Below are positions 6,251-38,458 of a stretch of 64,000 nucleotides of DNA, one piece after another. The first letter of the stretch is position 1. Every line of letters starts with the position of its first letter. Both the position numbers and the translations under genes were made by a program. A model generated the notes under the pieces. That model worked only from the letters and a program-made list of their open reading frames with translations. It made no database searches and was not told the origin of the DNA. The stretch lies in contig NW_026938675.1 of assembly GCF_032062105.1 (NCBI RefSeq), forward strand, positions 1-64,000, in the 5' to 3' direction. Source of the stretch: Saccostrea cucullata. Taxonomy: Eukaryota.

Positions 6251-6602
6251 GGCCTAGAAAAAAAATATGTTTGTTTCCGCTTTCAGGCTGAAAAAATGTA
6301 GGGTAGGTAGGTAGGCAATTTTTTTTTTTGAAAATTTTTTTTTGCTTCTATAATCAAAACATGTATAGAATTAACATTAATGATAAAAGAAATGGTGTTT
6401 TCAAGCATTTCTGTGACTTAGACTTTTAACAGAAAGGTGACCAAAACTTCTTTCTGTCTTGAAAAGCTTGCAAAGTTGGAAACCTAATTCCATGGGTGAA
6501 ACCTTGCACATCATGGGACAAAAGCATTAAAAAAATATTTAGGGTCGGCACTATAAATTAGGGTCGGTCGGGAAAGCGGACACGTATTTTTTTTCCTAGG
6601 CC
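6251..6602. mobile_element. PIF/Harbinger-type MITE
   Basis: GGCCTAG...CTAGGCC termini with ~35-bp imperfect TIR; TAA TSD at 6248-6250 and 6603-6605. Confidence 0.8.
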
Positions 6603-7344
6603 TAAGTACCGGAGATACTTAAATAAAGCCATAAAATGTCAAAAGTAGGTCACCGTGACTTACTTTTTGGTCGTCACTCTCCGAAAACTAAATATGCATC
6701 CACTCACAAAGTTTGATGAATCTAAGCCAATAAATATCTAAGATATTTAAATATAGCCATAAAATGTCGAAAGTAGGTCATCGTGATCTACATTTTGGTC
6801 GACATTTTTCGAAGCAATCGAACCAAGTTTGATGATCATAGTTCTGAAGGCAATCAAAATATGCATTTTAAACCAAAATTCGGCAAAATTCAAAAAGTAG
6901 GTCACAGTGACCTACTTTCTTATGAATATGTTTTAAGGTCCCTAGATGCATCAAAGTACAAGATTTGATGATTCTAAACCTACCAGTGTCTGAAATAATG
7001 GGATTTAATGTTTTTAAAAGGATGAGTCATAAAGTTCAAAAAGTAGGTCACGGTAATTCCCCGTGCAAATTTTAATCTTCGACATATCCTGATCCTTGTA
7101 TGTAAGTTTGGTGAAAATCTGCCTGGTGGTTATGGAGAAGAAGATTTTTTAGCAACCAGTACTTTTGGTTTTGTTTTCCTGATTATCTCCCCTTGTTTAA
7201 GGTTCCCAACCCTTATTTTAGTGTAAATGGTAGCCCTTGGGAGTAGTATAAGGCGCCTAGATAGGACCGCATTCTGATTGGCTGAGAGAATCACGTGATC
7301 AGTTCAGATTGGTTGAGGGGATAGGGAGGTCAACTGAGTGCAGT

Positions 7345-12042: not shown

Positions 12043-13209
12043 TGGGTTGACCTCCCTATCCCCTCAACCAATCAGAACTGATCACGTGATTCTCTAAGCC
12101 AATCAGAATCCTCCCCTATCTAGGTGCCTTATACTACTCTTGGGCCAAGGATACCCTGTGACAAATTTGGTACCTATTGGCCAAGGGGTTCCTGAGTTAT
12201 ATGGCCCTTTTTCTAAAAAGTTTATGCACACCGCACAAATGTCCGTAGCATTAGCTCTTTGAGCCTTTGAGCCTCAGAAGAGCTAAAAATAAAGAGATAT
12301 ATATGTTACACATAAATATACGTATTTATTCCTTACGGCGCAATTCATCAAAATAGTCTGCTTGTTGTGAATCGAATTCTTCTATGACTGCAGGAATACT
12401 GTAACAGGACAGAAAACGGGAAATAATGCGGGAACTTGGTGCTAGAACTTTTAAATGGTTAAAAAGTATTACATACTGCTGAATGAGCCGCAATGCATTG
12501 TGGGCTACTACAAGTTCCCAGCTGTGTTGAAAATAAGGGGCAACTTGAATTGTCCCTTGGAAACTTATTTTTAATTCTTTTTTGAGATTTGTGAAAGAAA
12601 TATTTAAAATGATGTATAATCTTTCATTTCTATGCTCACATTTACAAAACTTGCTTTATGAAGCATAATATATCAACTCATAATATATCGGCCTAAATCA
12701 TTGTTCAAAGAGACGTAGATGCTATCGTTTCGATAAAACATTGATTTTTTTTTCACGTGATATTCGTGTACATAGTTTTAGCAGGTAGTATGTACGTCTT
12801 TGGTTTTAGACTACAGGAGAGGGTGTGCAATTATTATTTAACCCCTCAATATCATCAGAAAGTTTTTTTATGTACATGTACATGCAACCGTCAAAGCGTT
12901 TGTACGATATTCGAAGCAATTATTAATCATCTAAAACAAATACAATATTAAATGTGAGCATGGAGCAATGTCTTTAGAATATAATCTTTCAATTTCGGTC
13001 TTATAAAGTGATAAAGAAACTCTACAGTTTTTCCGGTAGCGAGTTAAATTTTGTGAAGTAAACCGACTAAAACCACGTGTCGCCATTGAATCGTAAACAC
13101 GTAGTAGACTGCCATGCTTTGGAACTCATTCACTTGATTGGAGAACAGGTGTGACGAGGACATCGTCACGTGTTGAAAATTGCCTTCCATATAAGGTAGT
13201 GGTCTCGAC

Positions 13210-14612
13210 CTGTTAAACCATGGCATTTTCTTATGTGTTGATTGTGACTGCCATCTGTTGATGTGACCATTTTCACATGTTGACACTGTAGAGATCATGG
13301 CGCCTTTGCTGTATTCTACAAGTGGGACACTTTTTCCATTACAAATATTACAGACAGATAAAAGTTGAGAAAGTGCACTTTCTGACACAACATAATATTT
13401 CTCCTCTGATGGATTATCTGTTTCATCTAATCTGTAGTTACATGTCTCCTCTTCATCTGATTCCTCGTCCAATTCTGAATCCTCAAAATCGCTTGCATTG
13501 AAATCAGAGTCAATATCTCTGTTATCATAATTTTCATCAGAACGTCATTCCTCATGTTCATTAATTGCCATATATGCATCCGTGTTGATACTGTCTGCTT
13601 GACTATTTAATATATTCTCTGTAGATTGTCCGCACTTAAAACAGTACTGTAATTCACTGCACTGAATTTCAGCATCAACTGTCTTGAAACCTATTTTTGA
13701 TTTACCTATTTGGATTCTTCTTGTCTTTGTTTTGACTTTGGGGTCTGGGATAAATGCCTGGATGGCTTTGTCAGCCAATAATGTCTCACATTCCGCAGAA
13801 GATGAAGGAGTTTCTTGTTCAGTTTCAGGAACTTCATCTACTTTTTCATTTTCATTACTATCTTCACTGTCATCACTCTCTATCATTGCCTCTTTTAATA
13901 CCTGTTTTTAATGTACAATTTCATTGAAAAATAAAAAAAAAACTTTTTGAAATAATCAATGTAAGATATACATAAAATGTTATATAAACTTAAACTATGA
14001 CATCAGCATTTGTAAATTGAGGTTGTGATCCCCCCTTTTTTCCTTGCTCTGCTTACTAATGTATAACAATTATTAACAACTATTTAGATGATCAATACAA
14101 AGAAACAACAAAATTCTATACATGTAAAATGAATTAACATCATAGCATTTTAAACCATTTTTTAAAAATGTAATTGTAATGTCACAAATATAATTAATAA
14201 AGAACAACATGTAAGTTTTTAACCATATTTTAAAGAATAACTAGGTTTTTTTTACCTCAAGTCTTTGTCGCTTTCTAAATGCACCAAATCCTGGTGATTT
14301 TTTCTCAGTGTTTGATGAAGTTGAACATTCGTCTTGGATAGGCCACTCAGCATCGGGTACAGCATCAATCTTTAATTGCGCACGAGCATTAGGATAACCT
14401 AATTCAGCTAACCGGGGTGGATAACGTGAATATTGAACTGCCGTAAAGTGTTTCTCACATATTTTACTGTACTTTGTAAATTTAAGGTCTCTTCTACGGC
14501 AGTAATGTACCCATGATTTTTGAAGACCTGCATCTTTTGGGAAGCGAAAAAATGACACATTTTTGTCCACTTTTGAGGAGCTTGAACAATTATAAACAGC
14601 ACAATAAGGCAT
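13210..14612 (-). pseudogene. THAP-domain transposase 5' part (Kolobok-like), two exons, truncated; copy 1
   Basis: Exon 1 MPYCAVYNC...FFRFP...W...C...ICEKHF...AVP (THAP), GT donor ~14255. Exon 2 from ~13901 is acidic, then YYVVSESALSQLLSVCNIC...CENGHINRWQSQ; internal TGA at 13545. Confidence 0.7.
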
Positions 14613-14779
14613 CCTTACAAACTATAAATAACTCTGAACACAAAGAAATGTAATTGTGCAAGTTCTTTATTTATGACTTAAAATATAACCCATTACTGGC
14701 AATTAAGGAAACTATTTGTCTTTGATCAATGATAAGAAAGATTTATAGTATCTCTGGCTGAAACATTTAATAGCATCTC

Positions 14780-16237
14780 TGTGCTGTAACTGATCTCTGA
14801 CGTCACTCCCGACTCTTTCCGATCTCTGGGCTTTAATGTCCAAGTGATGAAGTCCCTGAAGAGAACATTGAAGATCAATTTAACAACAATGGAAATTCTG
14901 AAGTCGAAAACACCTTGCCTGTTAAAGACAAGACCCATGATAAACCGTTAGAGAGGAGCAGGGAGGAGAATAATGGACACTTGTCAACCCCAATCCAGAT
15001 GGAACCTACGAAATCAAGACTGGGCAGGCTTATAAAAACTCCAACAAGATTTAGAAAATAAACACTTAAAACTTGCTTCTATGTAAAAATGTTCCAATGT
15101 TTTGACTGCAATATTACGTACAAACATAAAAGGAATTTACAGAGACATTTAGAAGAACACCATTATTCCAGGAAGAAAGTTTATCAATGTGACATTTGTC
15201 AAAAGATAATTACAAGGAATTTTAACTTTAAAAACATTATTTTTCGCAACACAGTTTAATGGAAGTTTTAAATGACCTTTCGCCAGAAGATATTTTAAAC
15301 ATTTCTTGTGACCAGAATATGGATTATACTGTGAAAAGCGATTTGTATGAGGACATTTCATCTGATGAAGAAGAGTCCGAGCTATCACAAGATTCCGAGG
15401 ATTGTAACAAAACAGAAGAGAACTTGAGTGCCGAGGACATTAATGAGGAAGAAAAAGACAGTGTTTCTGAGGAGAAGAAATCGATTACAATCCAGTTAAT
15501 TCATAGAAGAATCAAACACCGTGATGGACATTCGGAAATCGTAAAAGCAATAAACTTTTCTTATTCCGAAGAAATGAAAGAGGTGCCAGTGGTAGATTTG
15601 ATGACCGATTTCATGGACGATTTCTTGGACAATTCCAATGAGAGAAAGGAATGAACTGTGACCGTGTATAAACTAGTAAATAGATGACATTTTAATGTTT
15701 TTTTTAATTCATCATTTATGAGTATTTTTGTTTAAAACTGCTATCATTGCATATATGATGATGTATATCGTTGATTTTGTTTTATTAAAATGACTTTGTG
15801 TTTTATTACAAAGAGGAATTATTATCAGGAGCTACCAAAATATGAATGTGAAAAGGATTTACTCGGAAACGCTACACAAGTAGTGAGGAAAGTAGTGATC
15901 ATAATAATACAGCGCGTGACAATTCTACCGTGAAAAAATCAACTGTGTGTTGGATACTAAACAAAACAATCAGGAATTACCCTGATGGTACTATGGAGGT
16001 GAGCCGGGACACTCGTGTGGTCTATTCCGAGGATTTAACACCTAGTGACATTGACTATGAAAGTGTAGCTTCGGAGGTTTTATCCGAAATTCCGAAACAT
16101 TTCGAGGAGGGAAATGTTAGATTCGCGTGTGGCGACTTTACCCATTTGTGAAAAAACGAACATATTTGACTGTAAATATTGTCTCAAGTGATGTTTAAAT
16201 GTACATACAGCTTATAACTTATTATGTTTTATTGTAG
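14780..16237 (+). mobile_element. Gypsy-like LTR element 3' fragment with pol tail and C2H2/acidic extra ORF(s); copy 1
   Basis: Pol tail SRLGRLIKTPTRFRK* ending ~15061. ATG 15089 CFDC...H...H / CDIC zinc fingers join ORF 15259-15654 by a 1-nt A-run frameshift. 15930-16151 carries NYPDGTMEV. Homologous to 26058-26789. Confidence 0.7.
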
Positions 16238-17089
16238 CTGCAGATCTGTAGCTCTCCGAAATATATATATATTGATAGACCGGAGAGCTACAGAGCCACC
16301 CATTGAAAAAACTGTATATTTATTGCGCACAAAAAATTACCTATCTGTTTACTTTACATACTGCTGAATGAGCCGCAATGCATTGTGGGCTACTACATGT
16401 TCCCAGCTGTGTTGAAAATAAGGGGCGACTTGAATTGTCCCTTGGAAACTTATTTTTAATTCTTTTTTGAGATTTGTGAAAGAAATATTTAAAATGATGT
16501 ATAATCTTTCATTTCTATGCTCACATTTACAAAACTTGCTTTATGAAGCATAATATATCAACTCATAATATATCGGCCTAAATCATTGTTCAAAGAGACG
16601 TAGATGCTATCGTTTCGATAAAACATTGATTTTTTTTTTCACGTGATATTCGTGTACATAGTTTTAGCAGGTAGTATGTAGGTCTTTGGTTTTAGACTAC
16701 AGGAGAGGGTGTGCAATTATTATTTAACCCCTCAACATCATCAGAAAGTTTTTTATGTACATGCAACCGTCAAAGCGTTTGTACGATATTCGAAGCAATT
16801 ATTAATCATCTAAAACAAATACAATATTAAATGTGAGCATGGACCAATGTCTTTAGAATATAATCTTTCAATTTCGGTCTTATAAAGCGATAAAGAAACT
16901 CTACAGTTTTTCCGGTAGCGAGTTAAATTTTGTGAAGTAAACCGACTAAAACCACGTGTCACCATTGAATCGTAAACACGTAGTAGACTGCCATGCTTTG
17001 GAACTCATTCACTTGATTGGAGAACGGGTGTGACAAGGACATCGTCACGTGTTGAAAATTGCCTTCCATATAAGGTAGTGGTCTCGACC

Positions 17090-19495
17090 TGTTAAACCAT
17101 GGCATTTTCTTATGTGTTGATTGTGACTGCAATCTGTTGATGTGACCATTTTCACATGTTGACACTGTAGAGATCATGGCGGCTTTGCTGTATTCTACAA
17201 GTGGGACACTTTTTCCATTAAAAATATTACAGGCAGATAAAAGTTGAGAAAGTGCACTTTCTGACACAACATAATATTTCTCCTCTGATGGATTATCTGT
17301 TTCTTCTAATCTGTAGTTACATGTCTCCTCTTCATCTGATTCCTCGTCCAATTCTGAATCCTCAAAATCGCTTGCATTGAAATCAGAGTCAATATCTCTG
17401 TTATCATAATCTTCATCAGAACAATTCCTCATGTTCATTAGTTGCCATATATGCATCCGTGTTGATACTGTCTGCTTGACTATTTAATATATTCTCTGTA
17501 GATTGTCCGCACTTAATACAGTACTGTAATTCACTGCACTGAATTTCAGCATCAACTGTCTTGAAACCTACAGCTCAACAAACTTTTTAAGCTCACATGG
17601 TTTTTCGCACAAATTAAGGTCACATTGATATGATATAATATTGTGTATAGAGACAACAAAATACATTTTAAAAGTATTTTGTCTACATAATTTGAGTTCT
17701 ATTTTATTTACTGAAACATAATTCACACAAATCAATTGGTCGAACTTTGATATATTCATGGCTGCAAAATAACAACTATTCTCATTTGAATTTTTGTAGT
17801 TTCTTGCCAATTGTAACTGTCTTTTTATCCGTTCTTTTGAAAGCAATAGCTCTTGGCAGAAACGTAGACATCGGTACAGTACAGCTACTGTAACTTGTAT
17901 TTTCTGTTCATATTGACTCTTTAACTCGGGGTGGTAATAGTATTTTTATCTGTTTGACTGCTATCTATGTTAATAAGGTGGGATTTTTAAGAGTCAACTT
18001 CTAAAATCTAGAATCATGAAAGATTCATCTCAGTGCAAAATTTTAACGTTTCAAACCGTAAATGCAGAAGAATTTTCCTTTTCATAGAAGGAATTTACTG
18101 TTCAAAATAATAAACAATACTTCATTATCCTACCCTTTAGTGTGGTTTCCTGTTGCAATATTATCCCTTTCCGGTGCTTTATTTCGACGAAACAAAGAGG
18201 AGTATGGTAAATGAGCAAAGATTTTTTAAAAATACTCACCTTTAAGAAGAAAATTTAAAAAATTCAACAACATGGGATCAAGGAGAGCTCGTTTAATACA
18301 ATGTGTAAAAACCTATGGTAGAATCGTACAGTCGAAACATCCTACCATTTATTATAAATTTTCCTTTAAAACATCCACTTTGGAAACTTAAATAAATGTG
18401 TTTTTGTGAAGTATTTTCATAATGATTTTAAAAGACATTTATGCTTGACATTATATATGTAATATAACGCAGGGTTATGCCATTGTACTGCAGTTCCAAA
18501 ATTGTTATTTTTATTTCAACAATGTGACCTTAATTTGTGCGAAAAACCATGTGAGCTTAAAAAGTTTGTTGAGCTGTATTTTTGATTTACCTATTTGGAT
18601 TCTTCTTGTCTTTGTTTTGACTTTGGGGTCTGGGATAAATGCCTGGATGGCTTTGTCAGCCAATAATGTCCCACATTCCGCAGAAGTTTCCGCAGGAGTT
18701 TCTTGTTCAGTTTCAGGAACTTCATCTACTTTTTCATTTTCATTACTATCTTCACTGTCATCACTCTCTATCATTGCCTCTTTTAAAACCTGTTTTTGAT
18801 GTACAATTTCATTGAAAAATAAAAAAAAATACTTTATGAAATAATCAATGTAAGAAATACATAAAATGTTATATAAACTTAAACTATGACTTTGTAAATT
18901 GAGGTTGTGATCCCCCCTTTTTTCCTTGCTCTGCTTACTAATGTATAACAATTATTAACAACTATTTAGATGATCAATACAAAGAAACAACAACATTCTA
19001 TACATGTAAAATGAATTAACATCATAGCATTTTAAACCATTTTTTTAAAAATGTAATTGTAATGTCGCAAATATAATTAATAAAGAACAACATACAAGTT
19101 TTTAACCATATTTTAAAGAATAACTAGGTTTTTTTTTACCTCAAGTCTTTGTCGCTTTCTAAATGCACCAAATCCTGGTGATCTTTCTCAGTGTTTGATG
19201 AAGTTGAACATTCGTCTTGGATAGGCCACTCAGCATCGGGTACAGCATCAACCTTTAATTGCGCACGAGCATTAGGATAACCTAATTCAGCTAACCGGGA
19301 TGGATAACGGGAATATTGAACTGCCGTAAAGTGTTTCTCACATATTTTACTGTACTTTGTAAATTTAAGGTCTCTTCTACGGCAGTAATGTACCCATGAT
19401 TTTTGAAGACCTGCGTCTTTTGGGAAGCGAAAAAATGACACATTTTTGTCCACTTTTGAGGAGCTTGAACAATTATAAACAGCACAATAAGGCTT
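17090..19495 (-). pseudogene. THAP/Kolobok-like transposase 5' part; copy 2
   Basis: Paralogue of 13210-14612; start ATG changed to AAG, frameshifts, MITE inserted in exon 2. Confidence 0.7.
17571..18576. mobile_element. Tc1/mariner-type non-autonomous element, 1006 bp
   Basis: ~57-bp TIR CAGCTCAACAAACTTTTTAAGCTCACATGG...; TA TSD; empty site with a single TA in copy 1 at ~13692. Confidence 0.92.
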
Positions 19496-21117
19496 CCTTA
19501 CAAACTATGAATAACTCTGAACACAAAGAAATGTAATTGTGCAAGTTCTTTATTTATGACTTAGAAATATAACCCATTACTGGCAATTAAGGAAACTATT
19601 TGTCTTTGATCAATGATAAGAAATATTTATAGTATCTCTTTGGCTGAAACATTTAATAGCATCTCTGTGCTGTAACTGATCTCTGACGTCACTCCCGACT
19701 CTTTCCGATCTCTGGGCTTTAATGTCCAAGTGATGAAGTCCCTGAAGAGAACAATGAAGATCAATTTAACAACAATGGAAATTCTGAAGTCGAAAACACC
19801 TTGCCTGTTAAAGACAAGACCCATGATAAACCGTTAGAGAGGAGCAGGGAGGAGAATAATGGACACATGTCAACCCCATTCCAGATGGAACCTACGAAAT
19901 CAAGACTGGGCAGGCTTATAAAAACTCCAACAAGATTTAGAAAATAAACACTTAAAACTTGCTTCTATGTAAAAATGTTCCAATGTTTTGACTGCAATAT
20001 TACGTACAAACATAAAAGGAATTTACAGAGACATTTAGAAGAACACCATTATTCCAGGAAGAAAGTTTATCAATGTGACATTTGTCAAAAGATATTTACA
20101 AGGAATTTTAACTTTAAAAACATTATTTTTCGCAACACGGTTTAATGGAAGTTTTAAATGACCTTTCGCCAGAAGATATTTTAAACATTTCTTGTGACCA
20201 GAATATGGATTATACTGTGAAAAGCGATTTGTATGAGGACATTTCATCTGATGAAGAAGAGTCCGAGCCATCACAAGATTCCGAGGATTGTAACAAAACA
20301 GAAGAGAACTTGAGTGCCGAGGACATTAATGAGGAAGAAAAAGACAGTGTTTCTGAGGAGAAGAAATCGATTACAATCCAGTTAATTCAGAGAAGGATCA
20401 AACACCGTGATGGACATTCGGAAATCGTAAAAGCAATAAACTTTTCTTATTCCGAAGAAATGAAAGAGGTGCAAGTGATAGACTTGATGACCGATTTCAT
20501 GGACAATTTCTTGGACAATTCCAATGAGAGAAAGAAATGAACTGTGACCGTGTATAAACTAGTAAATAGATGACATTTTAATGTTTTTTTAAATTCATCA
20601 TTTATGAGTATTTTTGTTTAAAACTGCTATCATTGCATATATGATGATGTATATCGTTGATTTTGTTTTATTAAAATGACTTTGTGTTTTATTACAAAGA
20701 GGAATTATTATCAGGAGCTACCAAAATATGAATGTGAAAAGAATTTACTCGGAAACGCTACACAAGTAGTGAGGAAAGTAGTGATCATAATACAGCGCGT
20801 GACAATTCTACCGTGAAAAAATCAACTGTGTGTTGGATACTAAACAAAACAATCAGGAATTACCCTGATGGTACTATGGAGGTGAGCCGGGACACTCCTG
20901 TGGTCTTTTCCGAGGATTTAACACCTAGTGACATTGACTATGAAAGTGTAGCTTCGGAGGTTTTATCCGAAATTCCGAAACATTTCGAGGAGGGAAATGT
21001 TAGATTCGCGTGTGGCGACTTTACCCATTTGTGAAAAAACGAACATATTTGACTGTAAATATTGTCTCAAGTGATGTTTAAATGTACATACAGCTTATAA
21101 CTTATTATGTTTTATTG

Positions 21118-22234
<1,117 letters not shown>

Positions 22235-36478: not shown

Positions 36479-38458
36479 TTTAGCTCTTCTGTGCCAAAGG
36501 CTCAAAGAGCTAATGCTATGGCCATTTGTGCGGTGTGCGTAAACTTTATAGAATATGGGCCATAACTCAGGAACCCCTTGGCCAATAGGTACCAGATTTG
36601 TCACAGGGTATCCTTGGTCCAAGGGCTACCATTTATACTAAAATAAGGGTTCGGACCCTTAAACAAGGGGAGATAATCAGGAAAACAAAAAAACAAAACC
36701 AAAAGTACTGGTTGCTAAAAAATCTTCTTCTCCATAACCACCAGGCAGATTTTCACCAAACTGACATACAAGGATCAGGATATGTCGATTTAAATTTGCA
36801 CGGGGAATTACCCTGGGGCAAAGGGCGTGGTCTCAAGGTCTCTTCAAAGTTGACCTAAATTTACAATTGATAAAACGTGTATATTTTGCTTACTATAAAG
36901 ACTAAGATCATCAAATCTTGTAAGTTTATGCACCTTACGACTTCACAATATGTTAGTGCAAAAGTAGGTCACGGTGACCTACTTTTTAAATGTTGCGGGG
37001 ATTTGTTTTCAAAAATATTTGAAGGCATATTTTGGACACTGTAAGGCCTATGATCATCAAACTTTGTCAGTTGATGCATCTTGGGTCCTCGAACAATGTC
37101 AACTTAAAAGTCGGTCACCGTGACCTACTTTTTGAACTTAATGACTTATCCTTTTAAAAACATAAATCCTATTATTTCAGACTCTGGGAGGTTTAGAATC
37201 ATCAAATCTTGTACTTTGATGCATCTAGGGACCTTAAAACATATTCATATAAAAGTAGGTCACTGTGATCTACTTTTTGAATTTGGCGACATTTGTTATC
37301 AAATGGTTTAAAATGCATATTTTGATTACCTTCAGACCTATGATCATCAAACTTGGTCGGTAGATGCATCTTGGGTCTTCGGAAAATTGTCAACCAAAAT
37401 GTAGGTCACGATGACCTACTTTCGACATTTTATGGCTATATTTAAGTATCTTAGGTATTTATTGGCTTAGATTCATAAAACTTTGTGAGTGGAAGCATAT
37501 TTAGTTTTCGGAGAGTGACGACCAAAAAGTAGGTCATGGTGACCTACTTTTGACATTTTGTGGCTATAATCAAGTATCTACTTATTGACATAAAATCATC
37601 AAACTTTGTCAGTTGATGCATCTTGGGTTTTCGGAGATTGTCGACCAAAAAGTAGTTCACAGTGACCTACTTTTGACATATGGCTATATTTAAGTATCTC
37701 AGGCACTTATTGGCTAAGAATCATCAAACTTTGTCAGTTGAGGCATCTTGGGTTTTCGGAGAATGTCGACCAAAAAGTAGGTCACCGTGACCTACTTTTG
37801 AATATCTCAGGTACGTATTAGCTTAGAATCATCAAACTTTGTCAGTTTAGGCACCTTGGGTTTTCGGAGAACGTCGACCAAAAAGTAGGTCACTGTGACC
37901 TACTTTTGACATTTTATGGCTATTTTTAATTATATCTGGTACTTATTGGCTCGGAATCATCAAACTTTGTCAGTTGAGGCATCTTACGGTTTCATTGAAT
38001 GTCCAACAAGAAGTAGGTCACGGTGACCTACTTTTGAATATCTCAGGTACTTATTGGCTTAAAGTCAGCAAATTTTGTCAGTTCAGGCATCTTGGGTTTT
38101 TGCATAACGTCGACCAAAAAGTAGGTCACCGTGACCTACTTTGCCATTTGATGGGTATATTTAATTATCTCTGGTACTAATTGGCTTAGAATCGTCAAAC
38201 TTTGTCAGATGATGCATCTTGGGTTTTTAGAGAATGTTGACCAAAGAGTAAGTCATGGTGACCTACTTTTGATTCACTGTGACCTACTTATGGTATTTTA
38301 TAATTATATCTTCAGTCTTAACTGGCTAAATATTATCAAACTTTGTAAGTTGATGCATTTTGGGTCTTATGATACTATTAGAGTTCGAGGCTTCTAATAG
38401 AAGTGATAGATTGTACAATTTATCAGAAGAGCGATTCAAGGCCCATGGGCCTCTTGTT
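36479..38458 (+). mobile_element. Helentron-type element with internal ~80-100-bp tandem repeats
   Basis: TTTAGCTCTTCTG head; many GGTCAC.GTGACCTACTTTT / ATCATCAAACTTTGTCAGTTG units; AAGAGCGATTCAAGGCCCATGGGCCTCTTGTT tail. Confidence 0.9.

Follow-up and report, generated by a model that had tools for sequence, protein, structure and literature searches.

An Apparently Undescribed Zinc-Finger Gene Behind pol in Bivalve Gypsy Elements and Its Probable Chimeric Remnant in Saccostrea cucullata

The stretch of DNA analysed here, which we call the window, comprises 64,000 nucleotides (nt) of Saccostrea cucullata (positions 1 to 64,000 of contig NW_026938675.1, assembly GCF_032062105.1). At 15089-16151 it contains a segment that a preliminary description, made from the letters alone, had taken for a single accessory open reading frame (ORF) of a second family of Gypsy retrotransposons. 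We consider it highly probable that Gypsy elements of bivalves carry a third ORF (ORF3) for a protein of 200-340 amino acids with two C2H2 fingers, an acidic linker, and one novel domain, and that the flagged segment is a dead chimera of two such genes, belonging to families that we call X and Y. The gene family and its domain are real and apparently undescribed. Taken as a whole, with a mechanism attached, the explanation offered below has in our judgment an even chance of being right.

Results

The ORF3 Protein Family

Among 1.84 billion representatives (protein clusters at 50% identity), a seven-sequence profile of the conserved module matched 86 clusters at E<=0.001, 31 of them at 1e-10. 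A refined hidden Markov model (HMM) kept 85; the cluster dropped, P0084, is a repeat protein with 20-residue matches. The domain is single in all 85 clusters and C-terminal in 79. Intact members share one layout over their 200-340 residues: two C2H2 fingers come first, then a conserved KPVYV..YxDISSDE segment and a linker that is acidic and variable, with one copy of the domain at the C-terminus. Among the 37 members that have at least 90 residues before the domain, 26 carry the Y-x-D-I-S acidic motif, a pattern found in 0.4% of shuffles. A strict finger pattern recovers two fingers in 13 of the 86 entries and one finger in 3 of 86, many entries being short and, by appearance, N-terminally incomplete. 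Of 57 aligned members, 17 match Pfam zf-C2H2; among the 25 of 29 families listed, none outside the finger type occurs in more than one member. The second finger is the more conserved: in the two-finger entries (24, near-duplicates included) its helix has Arg at position -1 in 24 of 24 and Arg or Lys at position 6 in 19 of 24, and finger 1 is variable. The protein is strongly acidic overall, and none of 17 full-length members has a transmembrane segment (maximum 19-residue hydropathy 1.27). An identity as env was rejected on the latter ground.

The 18 named carriers all belong to Saccostrea, Magallana, Mytilus, or Pinctada, genera of pteriomorphian bivalves that comprise oysters, mussels, and pearl oyster. 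They derive from 13 of 30 clusters looked up, the other 17 being ENA or Logan records, together with five Saccostrea proteins from other searches; it is possible that the host range is wider. Near-identical proteins annotated in Saccostrea would by themselves point to a rock oyster or a near relative as host of the window. The suggestion of a widespread accessory gene, conserved at the level of the protein, is borne out by the 85 clusters and, where context was visible, by the three direct links to pol given below. The patterned conservation of the protein also suggests purifying selection on the family, as had been proposed, a proposal that does not extend to the flagged copy itself. The RefSeq labels EVI1-like, PRDM16-like, and Cp190-like probably reflect the fingers alone, and many oyster and mussel gene models called EVI1-like, PRDM16-like, or uncharacterized are probably transposon-derived.

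The motif of about 35 amino acids noticed at the outset proves to be the front half of a domain of 65-70 residues (about 68), which we define here as new. AlphaFold2, run on 48 sequences, modelled it with a mean predicted local distance difference test (pLDDT) of 89.9 and a predicted template-modelling score (pTM) of 0.61, with strands at residues 5-15 and 21-31 and a helix at 42-59. The domain is therefore predicted to be a long beta-hairpin plus a helix; the hairpin-like module foreseen earlier is recovered, with the helix as part of the same domain. In the model of the full-length protein P0002, residues 1-90 (fingers, two helices, and a strand) and approximately 191-260 are confident, and the acidic linker has low confidence, which is consistent with disorder. 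Residues 1-57 of that model superpose on DNA-bound finger pairs, those of CTCF (8sss; Z 5.9, root-mean-square deviation [rmsd] 1.7) and tramtrack (2drp; Z 5.7, rmsd 1.5), with 57 residues aligned in each case.

The domain itself resembles nothing that we could name, in agreement with the earlier remark that the module could not be assigned to a known family. The best Pfam match of seven domain sequences has E 0.05 and the best match among PDB sequences E 0.077. Foldseek returned no PDB or BFVD match at E<=0.001; the best VIA alignment has Z 2.5 and an rmsd of 7.3 over 46 aligned residues; and the Atlas searches gave nothing usable, their top structural row, Bet v 1 at a TM-score of 0.53, falling below the bar for naming. 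A fold this small and open makes such searches weak, and the absence of a match is no proof of a new fold. To judge by the model, the domain looks like a small interaction module. A homodimer prediction scored 0.00, in a run in which the alignment was not used, and we count it neither for nor against dimerisation.

Linkage of ORF3 to Gypsy pol

ORF3 is joined directly to pol in three cases: a reference Gypsy element of a third family (Z) at 25292-33153 of the window, P0110, and P0092. P0110 is a Magallana gigas model in which a reverse transcriptase (RT)-RNase H region 75% identical to the window pol is followed by an integrase-type tail, the acidic motif, and the domain; in P0092 a piece of integrase is joined to the domain's second half. 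Family X would provide a fourth and weaker link, through its integrase tail. A sense ORF between the pol stop and the 3′ long terminal repeat (LTR), present in related families, defines the class known as aORF-3S, and this arrangement is found in the reference element, in P0110, in P0092, and in the position of the family X tail. The domains of P0110 and of P0005, a near relative of the reference ORF3, are 42% identical, compared with the 75% for RT-RNase H of P0110 and the window pol; judged by these identities, ORF3 evolves faster than pol.

Scans for further hosts were negative within their scope. No ORF3 locus was found in the viral contigs scanned with P0001, copy 2 of the domain (described below), and P0067; scans of viral contigs with integrase and with RT-RNase H gave no loci either; and 396 pattern matches obtained in metagenome contigs with the family alignment A1 yielded none that could be confirmed. 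Scans with RT-RNase H also produced 13 distant Gypsy loci of 30-55% identity. The domain is in none of these (best -1.1 bits), and since only 4 of the 13 extend more than 1.5 kb past the integrase match, they are a weak control. The Gypsy RT-RNase H loci L008-L013 lie within prokaryotic genome records and are probably eukaryotic contamination of the assembled bins.

The Flagged Segment

The locus opens with a 74-codon remnant of an integrase C-terminal tail, assigned to family X (14837-15061, plus strand), that ends in the pattern RxGRxxKxPxRF; a Pfam search with these 74 codons gave no match. The pol-type tail SRLGRLIKTPTRFRK stops at 15061, and the ATG of ORF3 stands at 15089, a gap of 27 nt (20 nt in the reference element). 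When 655 ORF ends in the window were compared with the reference integrase end, this tail shared 8 of 15 residues and scored 44; apart from the reference and the two copies of the tail, no end exceeded 12, the score of the next, unrelated one. The ORF does follow such a tail, as described.

Past the tail lies an ORF3 in two pieces. The 5′ part (15089-15244, plus strand) encodes two C2H2 fingers (Pfam zf-C2H2, E=2.5e-7), again as described, and is 67% identical to residues 1-52 of the intact relative P0067; the frame is lost within finger 2, between 15232 and 15244. The 3′ part (15232-15654, plus strand) contains YEDISSDEEE, present as reported and located at 15346-15375, then the acidic linker, the first copy of the domain (15472-15651; 50.6 bits with the domain HMM), and a stop codon at 15652-15654. 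It is 39% identical to P0067 residues 49-201 and ends at the same point. P0067 is an intact protein of 201 residues whose full length aligns to 15089-15636, and it ends after one domain.

An A+T-rich spacer follows (15655-15850, plus strand), with a G+C content of 0.21 over 15700-15799. It is probably the 3′ untranslated region (UTR) of family X, with the X/Y junction towards its right end; it has ATCATTTATG in common with the 3′ UTR of the reference element, and in the alignment to relatives it has no family match among the matches listed. The last 93 codons of a family Y ORF3 then occupy 15870-16151 (plus strand), in which the second copy of the domain (15936-16139; 99.7 bits) is read in a different frame from the first. 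This part is 86% identical to residues 174-266 of the Saccostrea protein P0002, has no match upstream, and is without fingers or an acidic motif of its own. The start of the family Y 3′ UTR (16152-16234, plus strand) includes a 14-mer at 16162-16175 that is shared with the reference 3′ UTR, a length reached in 0 of 2000 mononucleotide shuffles. The expected place of a polypurine tract and 3′ LTR, 16235-16336, is occupied by a very high-copy short repeat resembling a miniature inverted-repeat transposable element (MITE), with a contig depth of 83,399 in the last bin, loose contig ends at 16235 and 16336, and an inverted partner near 21550-21630.

The segment 15089-16151 is consequently not one ORF, given the frame break at 15232-15244, the stop at 15652-15654, the spacer, and the frame of copy 2. 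The claim that the motif occurs twice here and once at 26058-26789 survives in part: the three copies do align, and for none of the three pairs was the score equalled by any of 5000 shuffles, but the two copies in the flagged segment lie in two genes. The absence of obvious similarity at the DNA level was seen again, the best blastn match being 32 nt at 81% (E=0.003). As to a second Gypsy family, the tail and the homology of ORF3 speak for it, whereas tblastn with pol, integrase, and gag found no RT, RNase H, or integrase core of a second element in the window, and the locus has neither an LTR pair nor a purine tract in the expected place downstream. We regard the locus as a remnant derived from Ty3/Gypsy elements, without the status of a full element; its assignment to Gypsy, made without RT, relies on the 15-residue tail and on resemblance between ORF3 sequences.

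The whole block 13692-16336 occurs again, with identical breaks, at 18577-21225 (plus strand; 97.6% over 2660 nt, with the same features in the ORF list). The codon differences between the two duplicates are 2 synonymous and 10 non-synonymous, which are small numbers. The flagged copy is decayed, and there is no sign of constraint between the duplicates.

The two copies of the domain are strangers to one another. They are 18.6% identical, compared with 90% for copy 2 and P0002 and 50% for copy 1 and P0067. In a tree of 69 rows they fall apart, and an approximately unbiased (AU) test rejects a clade of the two (p=0.012, on 70 columns and with many forks open); copy 2 groups with P0002 and P0003 with support of 100/99. 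The tree omits 23 near-duplicate, frameshifted, or odd-composition entries, as well as rows below 45 bits or partly covered, P0067 among the latter. Because the alignments to P0067 and P0002, the identities, and the tree all separate the copies, we read the locus, by sequence comparison, as the 3′-terminal part of family X, made up of the integrase tail, a frameshifted ORF3, and the 3′ UTR, joined to the 3′ third of a family Y ORF3 with its UTR. The join could have arisen by a template switch, or by nested insertion followed by deletion. A Kolobok-like element truncates the chimera at its left end, and the MITE-like repeat does so at its right. Run X1 has contigs across the spacer (15564-15753 and 15731-16123), so that the X/Y join is not peculiar to one assembly.

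Three other accounts of the two copies were discarded. A join produced by assembly alone is ruled out by the X1 contigs. One protein with two motifs finds no parallel, since 0 of 85 relatives carry two and the window copies belong to different families. An intron linking both copies across the spacer is made improbable by the stop that precedes the spacer and by the lack of such a joint among the 15 of 28 splice joints listed.

The Reference Element

The reference element of family Z (25292-33153, minus strand) has the structure and the pol order of Ty3/Gypsy: LTRs of 511 nt with TG..CA ends and 2 differences between them, a target-site duplication (TSD) of TACA, and a primer site and a purine tract adjacent to the LTRs, with gag and a pol encoding protease, RT, RNase H, and integrase. 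The Pfam order in pol is gag-asp_proteas (weak), RVT_1, RT_RNaseH, Integrase_H2C2, and rve; the frame shifts near 27850, and Pfam finds no chromodomain in the integrase. The element is young, since its LTRs differ at 2 of 511 sites and its TSD is intact.

Its ORF3 (25988-26789, minus strand; Pfam, tblastx, and HMM) starts 20 nt past the integrase stop and encodes two C2H2 fingers, YSDISSDE, an acidic linker, and a single domain that is broken by a frameshift near 26090, the HMM matching halves at 26186-26091 and 26086-25988. P0005-P0007 are intact close relatives. In the U3 part of the LTR, at 32974-33136 and likewise in the other LTR at 25623-25785, there are six GAGTGA hexamers that we regard as candidate ORF3 sites; four of the six form two TCACTC-N5-GAGTGA palindromes, which occur nowhere else in the window. 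The pattern was picked after the LTR had been viewed, so that any chance figure for it is flattering.

Two further features accompany these elements. In the reference element, an 87-codon ORF that lies past the primer site and ahead of gag (32550-32287, minus strand) shows a CxxC...CxxxxCxxH pattern without a Pfam match and is possibly a second accessory gene. Short exact words link the 3′ UTRs of otherwise unalignable families, namely the 14-mer at 16162-16175 with approximately 25887-25900 and a 10-mer at 15711-15720 with approximately 25861-25870; such words are candidate conserved RNA signals.

Neighbouring Sequences

On its left the remnant meets the 5′ end and first exon of a THAP-domain DNA transposon (14241-14832, minus strand; Pfam THAP, E=7.6e-17) of Kolobok-like type, with an AG end and a TTAA flank. 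A THAP domain, an RR/AG end, and a TTAA target are given as features of Kolobok in a passage of PMC6004289, and all of these are present in the neighbour at 12300-14832, for which one end is available. The gene there is interrupted and apparently truncated, its exons having only weak Pfam matches; a spliced joint at 13898-14253 appears in RNA runs X1 and X21. The element stands outside the Gypsy remnant, yet cuts it short on the left. At the junction, TTAA at 14833-14836 (CT, then TTAA), contigs of DNA run X5 end: one aligns up to 14833 and continues with 508 unlike letters, and another aligns from 14836 with 66 unlike letters upstream, the orientation being our own assignment. The THAP gene (12300-14832, minus strand) is partially repeated at 16354-17570 and 18577-19718, with low-level poly(A) reads over parts of it, and contains a 739-nt insertion (12474-13212) that is missing from an X5 contig.

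The region as a whole is a near-tandem duplication (12469-21225) in which 12469-13693 corresponds to 16354-17570 and 13692-16336 to 18577-21225, both at about 97.6%. Approximately 1 kb of unrelated sequence separates the copies, which may represent a real duplication or uncollapsed haplotypes. The very high-copy short element has terminal inverted repeats and recurs at 16235-16336, 21120-21240, and 21550-21630, an apparently complete copy extending from about 21150 to 21630. Elsewhere in the window, a 504-codon ORF at 59649-61163 (plus strand; RVT_1, E=5e-38), which has no tblastn match to Gypsy pol, is probably a long interspersed nuclear element (LINE); arrays of degenerate repeats of 105-146 nt with an internal palindrome occupy 36860-38360, 51030-52760, and 6596-7240; and a 21-nt palindromic tandem array lies at 57960-58630.

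Discussion

A soluble protein with a pair of fingers bearing conserved Arg residues, an acidic middle, and a conserved end module has the layout of a sequence-specific transcription regulator. We therefore speculate that ORF3 is a nuclear regulator of the LTR of its own element, acting by activation or by opposing silencing, in analogy with VANC and Tas; we rate this as a serious possibility that falls a little short of even. In this scheme the finger pair would recognise short sites repeated within the LTR, the domain at the C-terminus would dimerise or dock on a partner of the host, and YxDISSDE together with the acidic linker would recruit host transcription or chromatin factors, so that transcription from the LTR is raised, or silencing opposed, in a family-specific manner. 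YxDISSDE could be a phosphorylated docking motif; it recalls what we take to be the YETLSDSE end of SMRT. By the zinc-finger code, a helix with R-1/N3/R6 reads GAG, and the palindromes of the reference LTR, which contain GAG, match that reading and are candidate sites.

Several observations weigh against the picture drawn here. The palindrome is a post hoc choice seen in one family and could be the site of a host factor, and we therefore treat it as a lead only. The linker between the fingers is 8-10 amino acids long and unlike the canonical TGEKP. Both ORF3s of the window, that of family X and that of the reference element, are frameshifted; family X has no RT anywhere in the window, and its domain sits on a long branch. 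The poly(A) runs X21 and X22 have a depth of 0 over 14853-15126 and of less than 6 in every bin up to 16222, and no splice joint into ORF3 occurs among the 15 of 28 joints listed. X1 contigs do cover the remnant; they also cover the THAP intron, so that this run may include DNA. At the TTAA junction the letters TAA stand in frame with the pol tail, an arrangement that would not result from clean insertion into an open pol. For approximately 80 of the 85 clusters the genomic surroundings are out of view. Linkage to Gypsy pol, finally, has three direct cases in its favor, and against a clean link stand three gene models in which the domain is fused to sequence foreign to Gypsy: a C-type lectin in P0093 and unidentified sequence in P0055 and P0064. 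The three are Mytilus and Pinctada models, and they may be prediction chimeras or instances of exonisation.

The chimeric nature of the locus has a competitor. Family X elements might carry two tandem ORF3-type genes, the second of which has lost its 5′ part here, or the segment might be a passenger gene of the adjacent THAP transposon. The X-spacer-Y order recurs in the contigs of X1, X5 contigs are about twice as deep across 15264-16085 as across 14853-15263, the pol core is absent at the locus, and the genomic context of P0002 is unseen, all of which would suit such a gene pair or passenger. Even so, P0110 has an ORF3 of the Y type directly behind pol, copy 2 is 90% identical to the complete, stand-alone ORF3 of P0002, and X5 contigs part at the TTAA, so that the THAP element and the remnant are separable; we judge both versions improbable and prefer the join of X to Y.

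Rival accounts of what ORF3 does deserve the same scrutiny. C2H2 fingers are able to bind RNA, and the protein might act on element RNA, in export, packaging, or translation of pol, like CERV of the Cer1 element. The short words common to the 3′ UTRs of X, Y, and Z hint at RNA signals, and with CERV a Gypsy element is already on record as encoding a nuclear accessory protein (PMC10309623, as far as its text could be consulted); the conserved Arg residues, however, occupy DNA-reading positions of the helix, the best structural matches are DNA-bound pairs, and ORF3 is strongly acidic overall, which leaves this account improbable in our estimation. A second idea is that ORF3 limits its own element, either as a repressor of copy number or as a restriction gene kept by the host. 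Oyster and mussel assemblies list many of the carriers as host genes, and a DNA-binding architecture does not distinguish activation from repression. A young element such as the reference (LTRs 2/511, intact TSD) nevertheless has ORF3 in place, and the split into 85 clusters fits families of transposable elements rather than one host gene; self-limitation thus seems slightly less probable still than action on RNA. The lowest rank goes, narrowly, to an adaptor for integration targeting, in which the fingers would recognise DNA or chromatin of the host and integrase would be bound by the C-terminal domain, ORF3 taking the role of a chromodomain in trans. ORF3 starts 20-27 nt past the integrase stop in both window families, the reference integrase lacks a Pfam chromodomain, and the domain is small and resembles an interaction module; against this, ORF3 has an ATG of its own as a separate ORF, and its long acidic linker suits activation better. 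We continue to favor a regulator that acts on its own LTR.

Tandem zinc-finger proteins are usually cast as host weapons against retroelements. If an element-borne finger protein exists across a lineage in dozens of diverged variants, whether animal retrotransposons encode their own sequence-specific regulators becomes a testable question, to be put by comparing finger helices with LTR motifs. In its widest form, which we think rather unlikely, the proposal would be that an old bivalve Gypsy lineage encodes a C2H2 factor with a new hairpin-helix fold that binds LTR palindromes and activates or unsilences family by family, as an equivalent of VANC and Tas in an animal retrotransposon, that finger specificity has co-evolved with LTR sites across dozens of families, and that the lineage is a source of zinc-finger genes annotated as host genes.

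The literature searched holds no description of a C2H2 ORF behind pol in an animal Gypsy element, and Repbase, Dfam, supplements, or subscription journals may annotate one. The portions available of PMC6238403, PMC13524379, PMC10294476, PMC11952523, PMC6431247, and PMC10309623 make no mention of such a mollusc ORF; the words "zinc" and "ORF" are absent from the main text of PMC6238403, a survey of mollusc LTR elements, and "zinc" from that of PMC10294476.

Tramtrack (2drp) and CTCF (8sss) resemble ORF3 in a generic finger pair only, and the rest of ORF3 has no counterpart in them. The Tas/Bel1 protein of foamy viruses is a DNA-binding protein encoded at the 3′ end, with an acidic activation region, that acts on its own promoters. 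The likeness to ORF3 would lie in the 3′ position and the acidic region; Tas/Bel1 belongs to a retrovirus, is not known to have C2H2 fingers, and is not expected to be homologous. Sense additional ORFs in the interval from pol to the 3′ LTR are known in LTR retrotransposons (PMC7264820), and, by the parts of that paper at hand, they are like ORF3 in position, orientation, presence across related families, and unknown origin; the examples described there, taken from plants and insects, are env-like proteins that have transmembrane segments, whereas ORF3 is soluble and combines C2H2 fingers with an unnamed domain. Closer in host, bdelloid rotifers have LTR elements whose ORF3s are of GDSL esterase, DEDDy exonuclease, coiled-coil, and transmembrane types (Rodriguez et al. 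2017, PMC5408684). The two systems share a non-env third ORF behind pol in animal Gypsy-like elements, but in the passages concerned the rotifer proteins are enzymes or membrane proteins, and neither "zinc" nor "finger" appears in the main text of that paper. CERV of Caenorhabditis elegans Cer1 is likewise a nuclear accessory protein of an animal Gypsy element; it differs, according to the sections seen of PMC10309623, in its Rev-like RNA export, cysteine loop, and predicted ring-forming domains, and has no likeness to ORF3 in architecture. A 2019 review lists, in the part consulted, only three anti-silencing mechanisms encoded by transposable elements, all from plants (Cosby et al. 2019, PMC6719617). 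VANC21 and VANC6 of the Arabidopsis VANDAL elements, as treated in the same pages, resemble in working principle what we suggest for ORF3: family-specific action through short repeated motifs in the element's own DNA. That likeness would be one of analogy, since VANC is encoded by a plant DNA transposon and has a demonstrated role in demethylation.

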